This document shows positions 3,340 to 53,337 of a stretch of DNA of 64,000 nt, piece after piece (within the stretch, counting starts at the first letter, position 1; each line of letters opens with the position of its first letter). Position numbers and translations under genes: made by a program. Source of the stretch: Malacoraja senta (lineage: Eukaryota); the NCBI GenBank assembly GCA_038087875.1, contig CM075991.1:8806001-8870000 (forward strand), given 5' to 3'. A model generated the notes under the pieces. The model was given only the letters and a program-made list of their open reading frames with translations. It was not told the DNA's origin and ran no database searches.

Positions 3340-3571
3340 TGCATGTGTGTTGTTTGTGTGGATTACATGTGTGTTGTGTGTAGATTACATACATGTATGT
3401 GTATTACATTTGTGTGTGTGTGTGTGTGTGTAATGCGTGTGTGTGTGTAGTGCATGTGTGTATGTGTGCATGTGTGCGTGTCTGTGTTTGTGTGTGTATG
3501 CGTGTGTGCGTGTGTATGCGTGTGTGCGTGTGTATGCGTATGCGTGTATGCGCATGTGTGTGTATGTGTGT

Positions 3572-3609
<38 letters not shown>

Positions 3610-3628
3610 ATGTGGGTGCGTGCGTGCG

Positions 3629-3690
<62 letters not shown>

Positions 3691-3691
3691 A

Positions 3692-3756
<65 letters not shown>

Positions 3757-3767
3757 TGTGTGTGTAT

Positions 3768-3815
<48 letters not shown>

Positions 3816-3842
3816 ATGAGTGTGTGTGTGCGCGTGTATTGG

Positions 3843-3883
<41 letters not shown>

Positions 3884-3884
3884 A

Positions 3885-3917
<33 letters not shown>

Positions 3918-3954
3918 AGTGTGTGTGTGTGTGTGTGTGTGTCTGTGTGTGTAT

Positions 3955-3994
<40 letters not shown>

Positions 3995-4021
3995 ATGAGT
4001 GTGTGTGTGCGCGTGTATTGG

Positions 4022-4058
<37 letters not shown>

Positions 4059-4069
4059 TGTGTGTGTAT

Positions 4070-4117
<48 letters not shown>

Positions 4118-4144
4118 ATGAGTGTGTGTGTGCGCGTGTATTGG

Positions 4145-4243
<99 letters not shown>

Positions 4244-4262
4244 ATTGGCTCTGTGTGTGCAT
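3340..4262. repeat. Compound (TG)n microsatellite with higher-order repeats
   Basis: ~920 bp of TG interrupted by recurring TATGAG and CGTGTATTGGCTCTG motifs. Confidence 0.97.
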
Positions 4263-5377
4263 GTACTTTCTGAGGAGGAAACGGTTACAATAAATGAGCC
4301 ATTATTCACAATCCATCAGAAATGCTTTAAAATGGGGCAGGATAATGTGCAGTTAATGCTGTGTAATTTACGCTGATGTCTGGACATGTTCAGTGGGAGA
4401 ACGCTGATTACAGATAATTGTTGTAGGTGATGCACAGGCGACAGGAGTGTGTTGTGCAAATGCTGAGGAGAGACATTTAGTCTCAGTTTAGTTTTGAGAT
4501 ACAGCGCGGAAACAGGCCCTTCGGCCCACCGAGTCTGCGCTGACCAGCGATACCCGCACATTCTTCTACTTGCATATGGCGGGCCACGGGGAGAACGTAC
4601 AAACTCCGTACAGACATCACCCATAGTCAGGAACAAACCCAGGTCTCTGGCATGGCTGCCACCGTGCCGTCGGTATCATTGAGATACCCAGCCAGGATCA
4701 TAGAGGGAGCATTGCTGTGCTACAGTGCTCCTTGCTGCCTGACAGCATTGGCTTAGTTTAGTTCAGCGATACAGCATGGAAACAGGCCCTTCGGCCCACC
4801 AATGTCCATGCAGACCATCGATCACCCGTACGCACTAGTTCTATGCTGTCCCCACTCCCTGCACAATGTGGGGCAATTTACAGATGGCCAATTAACCTAC
4901 CAACCTGCACGTCTTCGGGATGTCAGAGGAAACCATAGCACCCGGAGGAAACCCACGCGGTCACAAGAAGAACACGCAAAGAACGTCACAGACAGCATCC
5001 AAGGTCAGGATCGAACCGGAGTCTCTGGAGCTGTGAGGCAGGAACTCTACCAGCTGTGCCCTCGATTCACACCCAGATGAAATTGGGTGCTCAGTTACAC
5101 CAGGGGTGAGAAGACCGTCAGTGGATATTTTTAAGGCAGAGATAGACGAATTCTTGATTAGAACAGGTGTCAAGGGTTATGGGGAGAAGGCAGGAAAATG
5201 GGGTTAGGAAGCAGAGATCAGCCATGATTGAATTCGATGGGCTGAATGGCCTAATTCTGCTCCAATCACTTTCTGAACCTATTAACTAAGTATTCTATAT
5301 CTTCAAAATGATGTTAAGACTCATTGAAACTTCAAGTTATCTAGATTGCATCTTTATCCCATGCGGCAGTTATAGGA

Positions 5378-5670: not shown

Positions 5671-5809
5671 TAAAGGCAGTTTCCTTCATTTTACTAACCG
5701 TGCCAGACCAAAGTTTTTCATCTCCTGTACTACCTGGTGTCATGGCAACAAGAATCTCATTAGAACATAAGCTGCGCCTTTGACCAGTGTTTTACCATCC
5801 TCCCTCTTT

Positions 5810-7700: not shown

Positions 7701-7881
7701 TAACCAAAGACACGTTATGACATCTCCAACTCCTGCGTCAGCTTTGTGATATAAACCCTAAAGGAAAAATGCAGTGATAATCACTCGAATCATCTCAAGA
7801 ATTCGAATATTGACTATATTAATATTCATAAATAATCCAGCACTAATTTCGTTTATTACGTATCCTCAGTCCTTGTCCATT

Positions 7882-7935
7882 AGGGTGGGAGATTGCAACC
7901 TTCACGTGGTCCACTCTGTTTCGACGAATGCAATC
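7882..7935 (+). ncRNA. Minimal HDV-like (CPEB3-type) self-cleaving ribozyme motif
   Basis: P1 AGGGTGG(7882-88)/CCACTCT(7911-17); P2 GATTGCA(7891-97)/TGCAATC(7929-35); P3 ACC/GGT with L3 TTCACGT; GT after P1; vestigial P4 TTCGA; J4/2 C(7925)GAA. Confidence 0.85.
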
Positions 7936-8020
7936 AACCCAGCATGCACAATCAAATAAGATCAAATGGAACAAGTTGTCCTACAACTTTAGGCTGCGCA
8001 CGCCATACACAAGAGGAAGG
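7882..8020 (+). mobile_element. Short non-autonomous non-LTR retroposon with ribozyme head (Ingi/Vingi-like tail suspected)
   Basis: Homologous to 52561-52648 with the same 5' start; internal hairpin AAGTTGT-CCT-ACAACTT; 3' end GCCATAC(A/G)CAAGA(A/G)GAAG. Confidence 0.7.
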
Positions 8021-8933
8021 AAAAGTAGCCATCTATACCAATCCCAACTCCTAGTCTTTAACATTCCTTGACCCAACATAAGGTTCCTTCAAAACACCCT
8101 CTGCCACTATTCCAACCATGCAAATCAAAGATCGTTCAACGTGACAGAAGATTAGCACAAGCTTCTTCAGACCCTGCAGGGATAAGATCCTCTTGCCTGG
8201 TTGCCCAAGAAACACAAGACAATACATTGCATTTTTATAGAGTGCTCGGAAAGTAAGCCCAACATGCAGTGAGCATAACAAACCGTGTTACTAATTAATG
8301 TACTTAACGTATCATTTTCTGTGGAGAAGGCAGGTCAATTTTACTTCGGAGTCACGTGAGTGACTTCGTGAAGAACCCGCTCAGTGCGCAGGCGCGGCGT
8401 TACGCCAGCAGTGCAACAGCGGCGGCAGCTGGAGGAAGGCGCTCCGGCTGCATTTTGAAACGGACGGTTGGGTGAGTATATTCAACTAGTCTAACAGAGA
8501 AAGAGAGTGTGGGTGTTCTTAGCAAGTAAGTACACTCACCAGAAGATTCTCCAACAGAACTGCCCCAGCTCAACTCCACCAGAGGAGCGTTTAATCTCAG
8601 GGGGGCAGCAACAGGCGGCAGGACCGCTCATAGAGCACTCCGCTATCCCCGACACCGAGCCGAGCCCAGTCCCACTAATGCCTGCACAGCGGACAGGGAG
8701 CAAAGCCATGAGAGCAACCGGCCGGTAATGTCTGATTTGTCGGATGGGGACATGTCTCCACCTACACGGAGGAGAGACAGCCGCCAGAGCTTACAACAGC
8801 TCTTGGAGCAGATGCTCCAGCGAGCTACGCAGAAGGAGCGTTCTCGCGGAGGTAGGTCAGGCACCTCCTCCACAGTGTCTTGGGCACTGCCCTCTGCTCC
8901 CTCATTACTGGAGGCTAGCATTGGTGACCAGGG

Positions 8934-9605
8934 TTGGGCTGGTCTGGAAAGGGGCTGGCGGAAGAATTCGGCAGAATGCAAGGGGTGCAGGAGCAGGAAG
9001 AGCTGCTGGGTGTCGTGGACCGCTATGTAGCAACCCCACGTGCTGGAAGACCGCTGGAACCAAACATGGCGGCCAGCATCAATCATCTGTCAAATAAGCC
9101 CTTGCAGGAGAAGGTACTTCTTGAGGTGCTTGAATTTTATACAGCACCAGAGAACTGTGAGGCCCTCAGAGTGAAGACTGTGAACAGCCAGATCTGGGGT
9201 CACGTGGGGTCAAACATGTGTAACCATGAAATCAAGCTACAGCGGATCCTAAGGCTCCGGACGTCGGCCATTACAGCCTTTGCTCGTTCTGTGCAAAGTA
9301 TGGAGATGGATACTTGCCAGCAGGATGTGCTGGCACTGATGTGCAATACACAATCTCCGGCGGGGAAACATAAGACCTGCCCTCAATCCCAAATTTGCTG
9401 GGTTGTGCAGAGCCTCAGCTGCAGAGATGGATGCTCTGTTATTTGGGAAAGACCTCAACAAAAAACTGAGGGACATGGAGGAAGCAGCGACATCTTTCGG
9501 CCTCATGAGGGCAGGCCCTGGGACGAGCAAACCAAGAGCTACAATACCCAAGCGGCAGCACCCCATGGCATCCACCAGTCGACGTCCTCAATATGGGACT
9601 GGTGA
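8934..9605 (+). pseudogene. DIRS gag-like ORF1 (frameshifted)
   Basis: YTAPENCEALRVKTVNSQIW motif (P.N...L....VN..IW) typical of DIRS ORF1; continues in another frame (LLFGKDLNKKL). Confidence 0.7.
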
Positions 9606-9759
9606 AAGCTCGGGGACCGCATTTTATCCCCAAAAGATCTTTTTTAGATCAGGGCCCACAGCGGACCCCATGGAAAATGCGCCACCCCCCAACATCGCCA
9701 GCACGTCAGACAAGCAAAACCTACAAAAACATCAGGAAACAAAAGAAACACCACTGAAC

Positions 9760-10690
9760 ATGGAGGTAGGTGGGTCTGGTTCCTGCCAGCATATAGAGAA
9801 TAAGGGTGCTTTACTAACAGAGGGGAGCTTACACTGGTTTAAACAAGCATGGGTTACTGTCACGTGTGATAAGTATATACTCAACAGCATTAGTGGAGAG
9901 GTCATCCAAAAGACCAAACATGAACCTTTGGAATTTGTATCAAATAAAACCAAAAAAGATGGTGGATGTCGCATCATCATTGCCTTAACATCACTAAATA
10001 AGTTTGTTGAGTATATACATTTCAAAATGGAGACAGTTGTTACTGCCAAACAACTGATTTCCAAAGGATACTTCATGGCAAGCATTGATCTGAAAGATGC
10101 TTACTATCTAATACCCATACACAAGGATCATTGCAGATACCTACAATTTATCTGGTTGGGGCAGCTGAGGCAGTACAACGCATTGCCCAATGGGCTAACC
10201 TCAGCCCCAAGATTATTCATCAAAATATTGAAAATAGCCATGGCAAGACTAAGAAACATATTGTCATGGCATACCTGGATGATATTCAGATAGTAGGGAA
10301 AACGATGGAATTGGCTGTGGCAGCAGTATCAGCTACAAAATAGCTCCTCGAAACTCGGGTTCATCCTACATCCAGATAAATCTAAGTTGAAGCCATCCAC
10401 TATTATGGACTACCTGGGCTTCACAATTAACTCAGTCCATATGACTGTTACCTTGCCAAAAGGAAAATAAAAATAAAAAATAAAAATAAAAATGGTTGCA
10501 TTAGCACAATCATGCAACTATTTAATGGTCAACAAAGGACCAACTATTCGACAAGTCCCAAGAGTGATTGGGAAAATGGTAGCAGCATTTCCAGCTACAC
10601 AATGCGGACCTTTGCACTATCAAAATTTACAAACAGCAAAGGTACAGGCACTAAAACGACATACAGGTCACGATGTTCGTGTCATGTAAT
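9760..10690 (+). pseudogene. DIRS reverse transcriptase
   Basis: KKDGGCRII, HFKMET, SIDLKDAYYLIPI (from 10081), LPNGLTSAPRLF, and AYLDD (10269-10283, shifted frame); contains stops, deletions and an (AAATA)n expansion at ~10465-10492. Confidence 0.92.
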
Positions 10691-10769
10691 TACCCACTGA
10701 AGCAATATCAGCTACAGTGGTGGGCAGAAAATGTTTGGCATAGTTTCAGCTCTATCATCATCACTAACC

Positions 10770-11090
10770 TTACTTTAGTTCTTCAAACAGATGCCAGTGC
10801 TCAAGGCTGGGGAGCAACTTACTCCATATCCAGCATAACTATCTAGAGATGTTGGGCGCCTTTTATGGGTTAAAAGCATATGTAGCTAATATGCAGCACT
10901 TGCATGTTCGGTTACAGATTGATAATACTACGGTGGTGGCTTATATTAACCATATGGGCGGCATAAAATCATTATCATGCGACAAATTGGTCAATGTGAT
11001 TTGGCTATGGTGTGTCTAAAGACATATTTGGCTATCAGCTACTTATCTACCAGGTAAGCTAAACACAGTGGCAGACACCAGGTCACGCAA
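10770..11090 (+). pseudogene. DIRS RNase H domain
   Basis: LQTDASAQGWGA, YLEMLGA, IDNTTVVAYINHMGG and YLPGKLNTVADTRSR motifs; frameshift/deletion and an internal stop. Confidence 0.88.
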
Positions 11091-11520
11091 ATTCAATGAT
11101 AACATCGAATGGATGTTCAACCCTAAAGTATTTGCTAAAGTTATTAAGCAGTATGGAACGCCAGATATCGATGTATTTGCATCAAGACGAAATCACCCGT
11201 TACCTATATATGTCGCTTGGGAACCAGACCCAGAGGCAGCAGCGATACATGCCATCACGCTGGATTGGGGAAATGTCTTCTATGCTTTCCCTCCCTTCTG
11301 CCTCATCAGTCGGGTACTTCGCAGAATACAGATGGACTCTGCTTCTGGAATTTTGATGGTGCCCGACTGGCCTACACAGTCATGGTTCCCGGTTCTACAT
11401 GACATGGTGGTTGAGTCACCAATGGTCTTTCCCAGTGATCCAGGATTATTAACTCACCCAGTATCAGGCATAAGCCACCCATGCCATGAGAAAATTAAAC
11501 TCCTGGGTTGCAGGCTTTGA
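11068..11520 (+). pseudogene. DIRS DNA N6-adenine methyltransferase-like domain
   Basis: EW...PDIDVFASRRN...FYAFPPFCLISRVL...MVPDWPTQSWFP; open frame downstream of RNase H. Confidence 0.85.
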
Positions 11521-45240: not shown

Positions 45241-46574
<1,334 letters not shown>

Positions 46575-47503
46575 AGATATATACATTATTGCTGGGGACT
46601 GGGGAATTGAAGGCTGTGGGGAACTGGTACAGAAGAGGAGATGAGGCCACAAACATATTGAATGGTGGAGCAGGCTTGAAGGGTTGAGGGGAGTGGGAGG
46701 GGGGGGCAATGTGAGAATGGAGGTTGTTGAGAGATGCTGAAATTCAGAAAAAAAGGAAGTAATAGAGCGTGAAGGCATTCGGGAATCATGTTATTTGTCA
46801 GTTTGGTAAAAGCTCGGAGCCACTCAGGGAAGTATAAACAGTTTTTTTGACTTAACAGGCAATGGTTGAAGATTAATCTGTTTTCTGCCAACTTGGTTTA
46901 CCCTTAAAATGCGTCTCAAAGCATTTAAAATGCTTTCAACTCAATTGAATTCCTCCTAATGCTCCGTGTTAGAAAATTTGATTTAGTGGGTCCCAATTTC
47001 TTCATTACTCCTTAAGCACTGGGCAGCTGTGATCCTCCACTTTATTACGCAATTTGTTTAAATAAATTCAAAGAGAATGGTTGTTATTAGAGGAGCAGAA
47101 TAAAATCCCATTTGTTCAACAGATGCTGTGCCAGTGAAGAAGTCCGCCTCTTATCAGCTGCTTATACCCAGGATTACATTGTTCCTGATGGGAACTCACG
47201 TTGTGTCCTAATCGTTTTAACTGGTGCGGTGTCTTGCCTCAATTGCCTATCCATGGGGGATGCAGTGAGAAGATTTGTTTTAATTACGAGCCTTTACGAT
47301 TCATAATGTTCTGATCTGAATTGTACTTCCCAAGAAAGGTGTCAGAGAGTGGGCTCAAAGGCTCCTGGGTGAAGAAAGACAGAAAAAAGCTGGAGGAACT
47401 TGGCGGGCCTGGAGAAAAGGAATAGGTGACGTTTCAGGTCGAGACTGGGATCACTCTCTCATGCCTAAAAAATCGGATTCATAACAATTAGTGTAAATAG
47501 GTG

Positions 47504-52560: not shown

Positions 52561-52648
52561 GGGGGTGGGAGATTGCAACCTTCACGTGGTAAAATTAAAT
52601 AGAACAAGTTGTCCGACAACTTTAGGCTGTGCACGCCATACGCAAGAA
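52561..52648 (+). mobile_element. Second copy of the ribozyme-headed retroposon, internally deleted
   Basis: GGGGTGGGAGATTGCAACCTTCACGTGGT then a jump to AAATAGAACAAGTTGTCCGACAACTTTAGGCTGTGCACGCCATACGCAAGA; AATGTTTTA duplicated at 52552-60 and 53348-56. Confidence 0.8.
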
Positions 52649-53337
52649 ACATAGAAACATAGAAAGTAGGTGCGAGAGTAGACCACCAGGCCCATCGAGC
52701 CCGCACCGCCATTCGCTCATGGCTGAACACTAAACAGACACCCTTACCCACAAACAGTAGACACAAGACACAGAACACAAGACACTACCCTCCCCTTTAT
52801 ATCGCTATCACCCCTCTCCACCCCAAGAACCGCGTGATCTCCTGGGGAGGCAAAAAAACGGATAAAAACCCAGGTCCAATTCGGGAAAAAAATCCGGGAA
52901 ATTCCTCTCCGACCCCAATCCAGGCGATCGACACTTGTCCAGGAGATCACTCAGGTCTTACTATACTAACCATACCTAGGTCCATATCCCTGCCCTCTCC
53001 CCGTAGCCCCTTATCCCCTTGGCAGCTAAAAACCCATCTATTTTAGACTTAAATATATTTAATGTTTCTGCTTCCACTGCTCCCTGGGGCAGTGAATTCC
53101 ATAAATTAACCACCCTCTGGCTGAAGAAGTTCTTCCTCATCTCAGTTTTAAAAGAGCCCCCTCTTATTCTACAACTATGTCCCCTAGTTCTAGTTTCCCT
53201 GATCATTGGGAACATCCTCGGTGCATCCACCCGATCAAGGCCCCTCACGATCTTATATGTTTCAATGAGATCGCCTCTCATTCTTCTAAACTCCAAAGAG
53301 TAGAGTTCCAGCCTACTTAACCTTTCCTCATATGTCA
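52646..53337 (-). mobile_element. CR1-like LINE 3' fragment with long 3' UTR
   Basis: [33 protein letters not shown]...TRGHSCRIRG; (CATAGAAA)n tail. Confidence 0.88.

Follow-up and report, generated by a model that had tools for sequence, protein, structure and literature searches.

A 54-nucleotide (nt) segment of eukaryotic DNA raises the question of whether a self-cleaving ribozyme of the hepatitis delta virus (HDV) type, reduced to its minimal form, can stand at the head of a short non-coding retroposon. The segment lies at positions 7882-7935 of a 64-kb stretch of Malacoraja senta DNA (contig CM075991.1, positions 8,806,001 to 8,870,000, forward strand), which was analyzed as a whole and is called the window hereafter. 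The original prediction, made from the letters of this DNA, described it as an HDV/CPEB3-type ribozyme without helix P4 that heads a retroposon resembling a short interspersed element (SINE). We found that window positions 7882 to about 8025 are an old copy of a non-autonomous retroposon of the class without long terminal repeats (non-LTR), about 137 nt long, which we named SINE1. It is non-coding and present in high copy number, which supports the predicted SINE-like nature. Its ribozyme head is real and probably functional.

All the elements of a nested double pseudoknot that had been proposed within these 54 nt were confirmed in their proposed places (Table 1). P1, P2, P3 and P1.1 follow each other in the canonical order and spacing, and the three helices form 7, 7 and 3 pairs in the window copy as well as in its sister copies. 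As predicted, L3 (UUCACGU), J1/4 (GU) and J4/2 (CGAA) are identical to the Rfam CPEB3 consensus; the residue numbers of these CPEB3 parts agree with the available text of two sources (bioRxiv 10.1101/2022.09.22.508989; PMC4836649). Roles in the active site are described, in the available text of PMC4836649, for the J4/2 cytosine, for U20 and G25 and for the C22-G37 pair. Among these positions, the putative catalytic cytosine C7925 is present, L3 and J1/4 are those of CPEB3, and C22-G37 occurs in 15 of the 15 sequences aligned below. The SINE1 family consensus has a G1.U36 wobble at the cleavage site, from which the window copy departs with A1-U36.

We also built a generic HDV descriptor that contains no CPEB3-specific letters (7-bp P1, 7-bp P2, 3-bp P3, L3 as U.C..G., G after P1, and C.RA before the 3' strand of P2). 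When both strands of the window were scanned, 7882-7935 was the sole match. The same descriptor matched once in 20 Mb of first-order Markov sequence and once in 1 Gb of random sequence of the window's composition. Given about one match per Gb in random sequence, a match in a 64-kb window is beyond chance expectation. The minimum-free-energy (MFE) fold of the 54-mer, computed with a nested algorithm, consists of exactly P1 and P3, and that of a whole consensus-like copy uses P2 plus a long body hairpin. The folding z-scores were unremarkable, as expected when a pseudoknot is handled by a nested algorithm.

Next, we compared the head with the Rfam models. A scan of the whole window at gathering thresholds gave no match, and a scan of 7780-8100 at E<=10 gave only a chance match to a long non-coding RNA on the opposite strand, with no HDV or CPEB3 family. 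When a consensus-like sister copy, at locus L006, was compared with 4,227 Rfam families (E<=10), the sole match was HDV-F-prausnitzii (RF02682). Model positions 1-74 of this family align to exactly the 54-nt head of L006 with P1 and P3 in register, and the 20-nt P4 region of the model stands against 5 nt in SINE1. SINE1, which has no P4, gave no match to the CPEB3 model (RF00622) at E<=10. SINE1 is thus a relative of the mammalian CPEB3 ribozyme family and not a member of it. Together with the descriptor and the covariation described below, the alignment of the sister copy supports the predicted minimal, P4-less HDV/CPEB3-type fold.

The window's own genome (1.94 Gb) holds closer relatives of CPEB3. 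The covariance-model search that the original prediction had proposed was run with RF00622: of 59 candidates scored, out of a rough first-look set of 102,231, 39 exceeded the 35-bit gathering score, all of them as end-to-end model matches (best, 64.2 bits), and these head other retroposon families. Six fetched representatives were re-scored at 43.7-59.7 bits. In the families that pass the model, the upstream flanks are unrelated and the downstream sequence is conserved (for example, L069-L097, at C21:8958106-8958189, C1:217550485-217550568 and other sites). We fetched 28 of these sites and sorted them, together with SINE1, into at least six families. Family A has a head with a 24-nt P4, and its open reading frame (ORF) starts about 35 nt downstream. 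Family B (L073, L080, L084) has a long P4 and CTAA as J4/2; family C is old, decayed at CpG sites and nearest to the CPEB3 consensus; and family D has a short P4 hairpin. Family E (L075, L076, L096, L097) is a 172-nt non-coding element with a P4-less head, an (AAG)n tail and an 11-bp duplication. Its P2 is GGAAAGA/TCTTTCC and its J4/2 is CCAA; it has a 3' hairpin, its tail reads ...CGAT(AAG)n, and its 5-nt linker aligns with that of SINE1. With up to 3 mismatches, 42 family E heads were counted in the genome, and a copy also lies on the minus strand of L039 near 1332. Family F is SINE1 itself. A search for the P3-L3 13-mer of SINE1 beside a non-SINE1 P1 strand gave 24 genome matches and no other family; this search missed the relatives because they differ in P3. 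We also noticed that the second base of J4/2 in SINE1 (element position 45, L006 1544) changes from G to T in 15-49% of the depth in four sequencing runs, which indicates a large SINE1 subfamily with T at this position. Tolerance of this base fits the T/U found both in family B (CTAA) and in the SINE1 variants.

The fold is conserved by selection across these families. We aligned 15 heads from the six families with MAFFT, taken from 31 ribozyme-bearing sequences after family A sequences that were nearly identical to one another and those copies that were the most decayed or were 5'-truncated had been set aside. No structural guidance was given, and all helices nevertheless fell in register. 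Over the 26 pairs counted (P1, P2, P3, P1.1 and P4), 92.2% of the cells held standard pairs, against a shuffle mean of 76.1%; 18 pairs were altered on both sides, against a mean of 11.3; and the covariation score was 0.452, against a mean of 0.182. None of 500 shuffles was as high on any of the three measures. The shuffle counts make the sequences, which are related and all stem from a single genome, look more independent than they are; controls in which the partner was slid by 1-3 columns are fairer, and in these, pairing fell to 36-45% and the score to 0.05-0.12. Changes on both sides affected 3 of 7 pairs in P1, 6 of 7 in P2, 2 of 3 in P3 and 7 of 8 in P4. The P1.1 pair C22-G37 and five of the seven L3 positions (T20, T21, C22, C24 and T26) are invariant in all 15 sequences, as are both J1/4 bases and the two J4/2 adenines across the families. 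SINE1 is the most divergent family: it departs from the others at P1 positions 5-7 and throughout P2 and P3, yet its helices still pair at 7, 7 and 3 positions.

The ribozyme stands precisely at the 5' end of the element. BLAST-type comparison with the genome returned 2,052 first-look candidates; the 40 that were scored showed 93-100% identity. The 54-nt consensus head, allowing up to 3 mismatches, was found at 5,708 genome sites, the first 100 listed being exact, and a reversed-pattern control gave none. Among 72 high-scoring segment pairs (HSPs) in 68 fetched loci, 59 start at position 1 and 4 at position 2, so that 63 of the 72 bear out the expectation that genomic copies begin at the first base of P1; the other 9 are 5'-truncated or partial. 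Because 38 of the 68 loci had been picked by features of their 3' part, this sharp boundary is not a selection artefact. The same 5' boundary was present in contigs from three other organisms. Target-site duplications of 7-15 bp flank 52 of 56 non-redundant full-length copies, with a mode of 11 bp (19 of 52). The duplication directly adjoins G1 in 37 copies and lies 1-3 nt off in 15, and a few of these script-made calls are doubtful, including that for the window copy and one with a poly-G flank. The copy at L006 sits within another abundant repeat (L006:1445-1500 and 1658-1750), and paralogous empty sites were recovered, as reads and contigs of four runs, stemming from other copies of that repeat, join L006 position 1500 to 1658-1664. 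SINE1 thus shows the features of a non-LTR retroposon, namely duplications, a 3' simple-repeat tail, many dispersed copies and no ORF. As a separate observation, 28 of the 56 copies have a T immediately before G1, 10 copies carry one extra base between the duplication and G1, and about half of the loose ends of RNA and contigs begin one base early, on T. This T may reflect target preference or non-templated addition.

SINE1 lacks the marks of a classical SINE transcribed by RNA polymerase III (Pol III), which are internal A and B boxes and a head resembling a small RNA. ARAGORN reported no transfer RNA (tRNA), and Rfam scans of the window copy region and of L006 showed no similarity to tRNA, 5S, 7SL or small nuclear RNA (snRNA). 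Scored against the consensus boxes, the best A-box/B-box match had 3+3 mismatches, and 374 of 2000 shuffles equalled the joint match. The original prediction, which saw no tRNA box A or B, is therefore sustained, the match being no better than that of 19% of shuffles. There is no TTTT run inside the element.

Sister copies end in CATAC(G/A)CAAG(AAG)n, with (AAG)3-6 as the tail, followed by the target-site duplication. The degenerate AAG tail of the window copy reaches to about 8025, somewhat beyond the element end at 8020 that had been proposed. The age of this copy is apparent from A1, from a G3.U34 pair, from three mismatches in the body stem, from the decayed tail and from the lack of a clear target-site duplication. 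The window contains a second copy that starts with G at position 1, as the original prediction said, but the 3' half of its ribozyme has been deleted. We also observed a SINE1 variant in which 16 nt between a pair of TGCA repeats are missing (...CGAATGCA followed directly by CAATC...); it made up about 25 of the first 100 body-junction matches listed. In this variant, the downstream CAATC rebuilds the 3' strand of P2; such copies may form a small subfamily or have arisen by slippage deletion that recurred.

Table 1. Parts of the SINE1 copy at window position 7882 and location of the second copy. Positions are those of the window.
Feature	Position	Strand	Remarks
Minimal HDV/CPEB3-type ribozyme head, 54 nt	7882..7935	+	Predicted cleavage 5' of 7882
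P1, 5' strand AGGGTGG	7882..7888	+	A1 in window copy, G1 in family consensus; 7/7 pairs with 7911-7917, one being G.U
J1/2 GA	7889..7890	+	
P2, 5' strand GATTGCA	7891..7897	+	Pairs with 7929-7935
P3 ACC/GGT	7898..7900 with 7908..7910	+	3/3 pairs, closes L3
L3 TTCACGT	7901..7907	+	7-nt loop
P1, 3' strand CCACTCT	7911..7917	+	Consensus CCGCCCT or CCACCCT
J1/4 GT	7918..7919	+	P1.1 partner of L3
Linker TTCGA	7920..7924	+	5 nt replacing P4; aligns with linker of second minimal family
J4/2 CGAA	7925..7928	+	Putative catalytic C is C7925
P2, 3' strand TGCAATC	7929..7935	+	7 Watson-Crick pairs with 7891-7897
Non-coding body	7936..8010	+	From MFE fold of consensus-like copy; window copy folds worse
Body long-range stem	7941-7950 with 7995-8004	+	Decayed in window copy
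Body apical hairpin, loop CCT	7973-7979 / 7983-7989	+	
CATACAC, 3' of body stem	within 7936..8010	+	At body end
Degenerate (AAG)n tail AAGAGGAAGGAAAAG	8011..8025	+	
Second SINE1 copy	52562..52650	+	G1 start; internal deletion, ribozyme 3' half and part of body gone

If SINE1 is mobilized by the machinery of another element, then the question arises of which element supplies it. The best candidate is family A, a long interspersed element (LINE). A full-length copy of about 3.1 kb is contiguous across L070 and L077 (C1:217550385-217555300) and consists of a CPEB3-type head with P4, an open frame of 940 codons, about 220 nt after the stop and an (AAG)4 end. Pfam searches of the frame identified Exo_endo_phos (E 6.6e-8) and RVT_1 (E 2e-32 to 1e-33), and Exo_endo_phos_2 (E 5.9e-9) was found on a second full-length copy (L101). 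Since the frame of L101 is broken into pieces, these domain calls combine pieces of two copies. Duplications of 11 bp at G1 flank three of the four full-length LINE copies, including the one at L070 and L077. The genome holds 11 LINE heads and 174 LINE 3' ends, the first 96 listed being exact, which indicates a young, recently active and mostly 5'-truncated family. According to the available text of PMC1291365, members of the RTE clade measure 3.2-3.9 kb and have one ORF of 922-1066 amino acids with apurinic endonuclease (APE) and reverse transcriptase (RT) domains and a short 3' untranslated region (UTR) ending in short repeats; SINEs derived from RTE elements are also described there. The LINE resembles them in its length of about 3.1 kb, its single APE and RT ORF, its short 3' end and its trimer repeat. 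Judged by this architecture alone, it appears to be RTE-like; a Protein Atlas comparison of its RT gave no usable taxon or clade. The original prediction had suspected an Ingi/Vingi-like partner; we found nothing for or against this, and the candidate at hand has an RTE-like architecture. SINE1 and the LINE have in common the type of head, the start at G1, the (AAG)n tail, the 11-bp duplication length and recent activity.

Based on these results, we propose that SINE1 is a ribozyme-headed retroposon that cuts itself out of longer RNAs and is mobilized by a LINE, an account that we consider likely. In a source transcript, the head would fold and cut directly 5' of G1, so that the RNA would gain a precise 5' end with no need for its own promoter. 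At a nicked target, a LINE RT would then use the (AAG)n tail for priming and copy the RNA to its very 5' end, and the 3.1-kb LINE, with its single APE and RT ORF, its full-size CPEB3-type head and its (AAG)n tail, would be the best candidate source of this RT. We speculate that, where a copy carries an extra T before G1, this base could be a non-templated addition at run-off.

Several results weigh against this proposal, and the first of them concern the partner. In BLAST comparisons, SINE1 and the LINE share no sequence beyond the core of the head and the tail. Five exhaustive junction searches of the genome, each with a SINE1 anchor beside non-SINE1 letters and with a difference demanded at three chosen positions, found no longer element with SINE1 ends; each of these filters would let a given LINE through with a probability of roughly 40%. 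The ribozyme 3' end as anchor gave 74 matches, the body 127, the stem-loop 28, the 3' 22-mer 8 and the 3' 17-mer 23. All were indel variants or truncated SINE1 copies, with no recurrent foreign flank. The original prediction had called CATAC-(AAG)n a LINE-recognition tail and had looked to an autonomous LINE that shares both ends; the head type and the (AAG)n tail are indeed common to SINE1 and the LINE, but no LINE was found to share CATAC or the 3' body, so that the recognition role is deduced solely from the shared (AAG)n. The link between SINE1 and the LINE is circumstantial.

Further points concern the ribozyme itself. The window copy has A1 in place of G1. The best Rfam score of SINE1 is 14.4 bits against a gathering score of 44, and the window copy has none at E<=10. 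The pairing was expected to be preserved across copies. This was borne out by compensatory changes across the related families, but no covariation was found within SINE1: at the pair 7-30, T30 occurs in 1 of 36 copies with A7 and in 33 copies with G7. Such an absence is as the neutral decay of dead copies predicts.

The RNA data also count against efficient cleavage. Raw polyA RNA-seq reads from a single related organism, taken from about 6% of run X24, were mapped on L006. The reads cover both strands of SINE1, and 1,340 of 1,373 continue into unrelated flanks. Moreover, 231 reads cross the 5' junction with heterogeneous upstream sequence, and no pile-up of read starts was seen at G1 or at any other place. 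SINE1 is transcribed passively, on both strands, within longer host RNAs, which the proposed account requires. Because the reads cross the 5' junction and do not pile up, most steady-state polyA transcripts are either uncut or their cut products are lost. This result is not decisive, since most copies are mutated, cut fragments of pre-mRNA may be short-lived, and CPEB3-type ribozymes can be slow.

The same reads bear on two other explanations. In one, the fold would be kept mainly for protein binding or for assembly of a ribonucleoprotein with the LINE machinery, the 5' end would be set otherwise, and cleavage would be weak or absent in this P4-less form; a role of this kind has been put forward for the 5' pseudoknot of R2. 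Reads that mostly cross the 5' junction without a pile-up at G1 agree with this, as does the covariation, which demonstrates selection for structure and not for catalysis; in addition, binding of the R2 protein to a pseudoknot inside the HDV-like ribozyme of R2 has been reported (available text of PMC6765202). However, the nucleotides of catalysis, namely the J4/2 cytosine, U20 and G25, C22-G37 and G1.U, are invariant or at least occur in every one of the six families, and copies of both SINE1 and the LINE start exactly at G1, which binding alone does not explain. We therefore regard this explanation as improbable.

It seems equally unlikely that SINE1 is an ordinary promoter-driven SINE that starts at G1, with a head that is a vestige, no longer active, inherited from a LINE ribozyme. 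An internal promoter fixes the 5' end of any SINE, so the sharp boundary alone would be compatible with this, and the lack of a TTTT run and of a cleavage signal in the RNA reads points the same way. The missing P4 and the weak Rfam match could likewise mean decay, but a vestige would hardly have three helices rebuilt in different sequence with perfect pairing around an intact core, and a second, independent P4-less family exists. The absence of tRNA, 5S, 7SL and snRNA similarity and an A/B-box match no better than that of 19% of shuffles also speak against it. Finally, a chance resemblance to HDV-like ribozymes is effectively refuted: although the generic descriptor is expected to give a few matches in a genome of this size (about 1 per Gb), the sole window match coincides exactly with the 5' end of an element present in 5,708 copies, its core is identical to that of CPEB3, and the same genome contains relatives that pass Rfam and show covariation with it.

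The rest of the window contains other repeats. About 1 kb downstream of the SINE1 copy, on the plus strand, lies a region (8934-11520) that, judging from motifs alone, is probably a DIRS-type retroelement. It includes ORFs with DIRS-like RT motifs (9403-10293), which look intact, followed by a conserved ORF (11068-11520). Protein Atlas matches of this RT were to RVT_1, with scores under 0.9 and no usable taxon or clade. Two imperfect (AC)n/(GT)n microsatellite arrays of roughly 0.9-1.4 kb (3363-4309 and 45263-46687) give rise to long spurious ORFs.

How does the ribozyme-headed SINE1 compare with known systems? Non-LTR elements with ribozyme heads, together with their non-autonomous derivatives, are already established (R2 and its SIDEs; L1Tc and its NARTc and SIDER). 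The available text of two papers reports HDV-like ribozymes in the 5' UTRs of RTE elements and describes them as processing the 5' ends of RTE, R2, L1Tc and their non-autonomous derivatives (PMC6765202, PMC11620745), in agreement with what the original prediction had stated for R2, RTE and L1Tc; some SINEs are also said to use HDV-like ribozymes (PMC6765202). Like the heads of RTE, R2, Baggins and L1Tc, the SINE1 ribozyme comes first in a promoterless non-LTR element, and the copies start at the cleavage site. SINE1 differs from the RTE, R2 and L1Tc systems in being 137 nt long, in lacking P4 and in having 5,708 heads against 11 for its candidate partner. As with NARTc/SIDER and the SIDEs of R2, a short non-coding derivative occurs beside an autonomous element (available text of PMC6765202, PMC3414825 and PMC4035085). 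Unlike derivatives of the NARTc/SIDER type, SINE1 is no internally deleted form of the LINE, as only the core and (AAG)n are common to both.

The closest structural counterparts are the minimal and theta ribozymes of gut phages and metagenomes, which share with SINE1 the few nt that stand for P4 and a size of about 54 nt. In the available text of bioRxiv 10.1101/2023.06.13.544163, P4-less forms are detected only in bacteriophage genomes of gut metagenomes and are linked to tRNA processing, which agrees with the microbiome and phage origin given for them in the original prediction. SINE1, in contrast, is found in a large eukaryotic genome and at the head of a retroposon. The F. prausnitzii HDV ribozyme (RF02682) has the same P3 (ACC/GGU), a nearly identical L3 and an end-to-end alignment with SINE1; it differs in being a bacterial family with a 20-nt P4 region, and SINE1 reaches 14.4 bits against its 44-bit cut-off. 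The schistosome element Sm-alpha is, like SINE1, a short interspersed element with a self-cleaving ribozyme, predicted in the case of SINE1 (available text of PMC6765202). However, its ribozyme is a hammerhead, and it is transcribed by Pol III and depends on tandem copies.

Our literature search, which did not cover the lists of Ruminski et al. 2011 and Webb et al. 2009, found neither a P4-less HDV-like head on a eukaryotic SINE nor ribozymes that pass the CPEB3 model on LINEs. Relative to the literature searched, we thus found no precedent for a P4-less ribozyme in a eukaryotic mobile element, for multi-copy CPEB3-model ribozymes on a LINE and on short elements, or for the covariation series. 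Given the amplification to thousands of copies, the minimal fold would have sufficed to let the element retropose again and again. Since they contain no ORF, the short elements separate the cleavage role from the role as an internal ribosome entry site that has been proposed for such heads.

The comparison with CPEB3 raises a further possibility. The mammalian CPEB3 ribozyme (RF00622) and SINE1 are alike in L3, J1/4, J4/2, the order of the helices, the 7-bp P1 and the 3-bp P3, and sister families in the Malacoraja senta genome pass the RF00622 gathering score. SINE1 differs in the absence of P4, in the sequences of P1, P2 and P3 and in its multi-copy occurrence at the 5' end of a retroposon, whereas CPEB3 occupies one intronic locus. 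According to the available text of PMC8233481, its ribozyme is absent outside mammals. We tentatively suggest, as a possibility that at present seems rather less probable than its opposite, that this genome preserves the ancestral setting of CPEB3, an RTE-like LINE/SINE superfamily with CPEB3-type heads, and that the mammalian ribozyme is an exapted retroposon head. If so, the families described here would supply the missing outgroups for CPEB3. The heads of the two P4-less SINEs would then be the first natural case of a minimal HDV-like ribozyme at work in a eukaryote, and, as these elements lack an ORF, they would also show that processing of the 5' end, and not initiation of translation, is the role under selection. 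The origin of the CPEB3 ribozyme would become directly testable, provided that the genome is non-mammalian, to which its DIRS-like elements and a repeat content of the sort known from non-mammalian vertebrates seem to point. The six families, with and without P4, offer a natural series for kinetic comparison.

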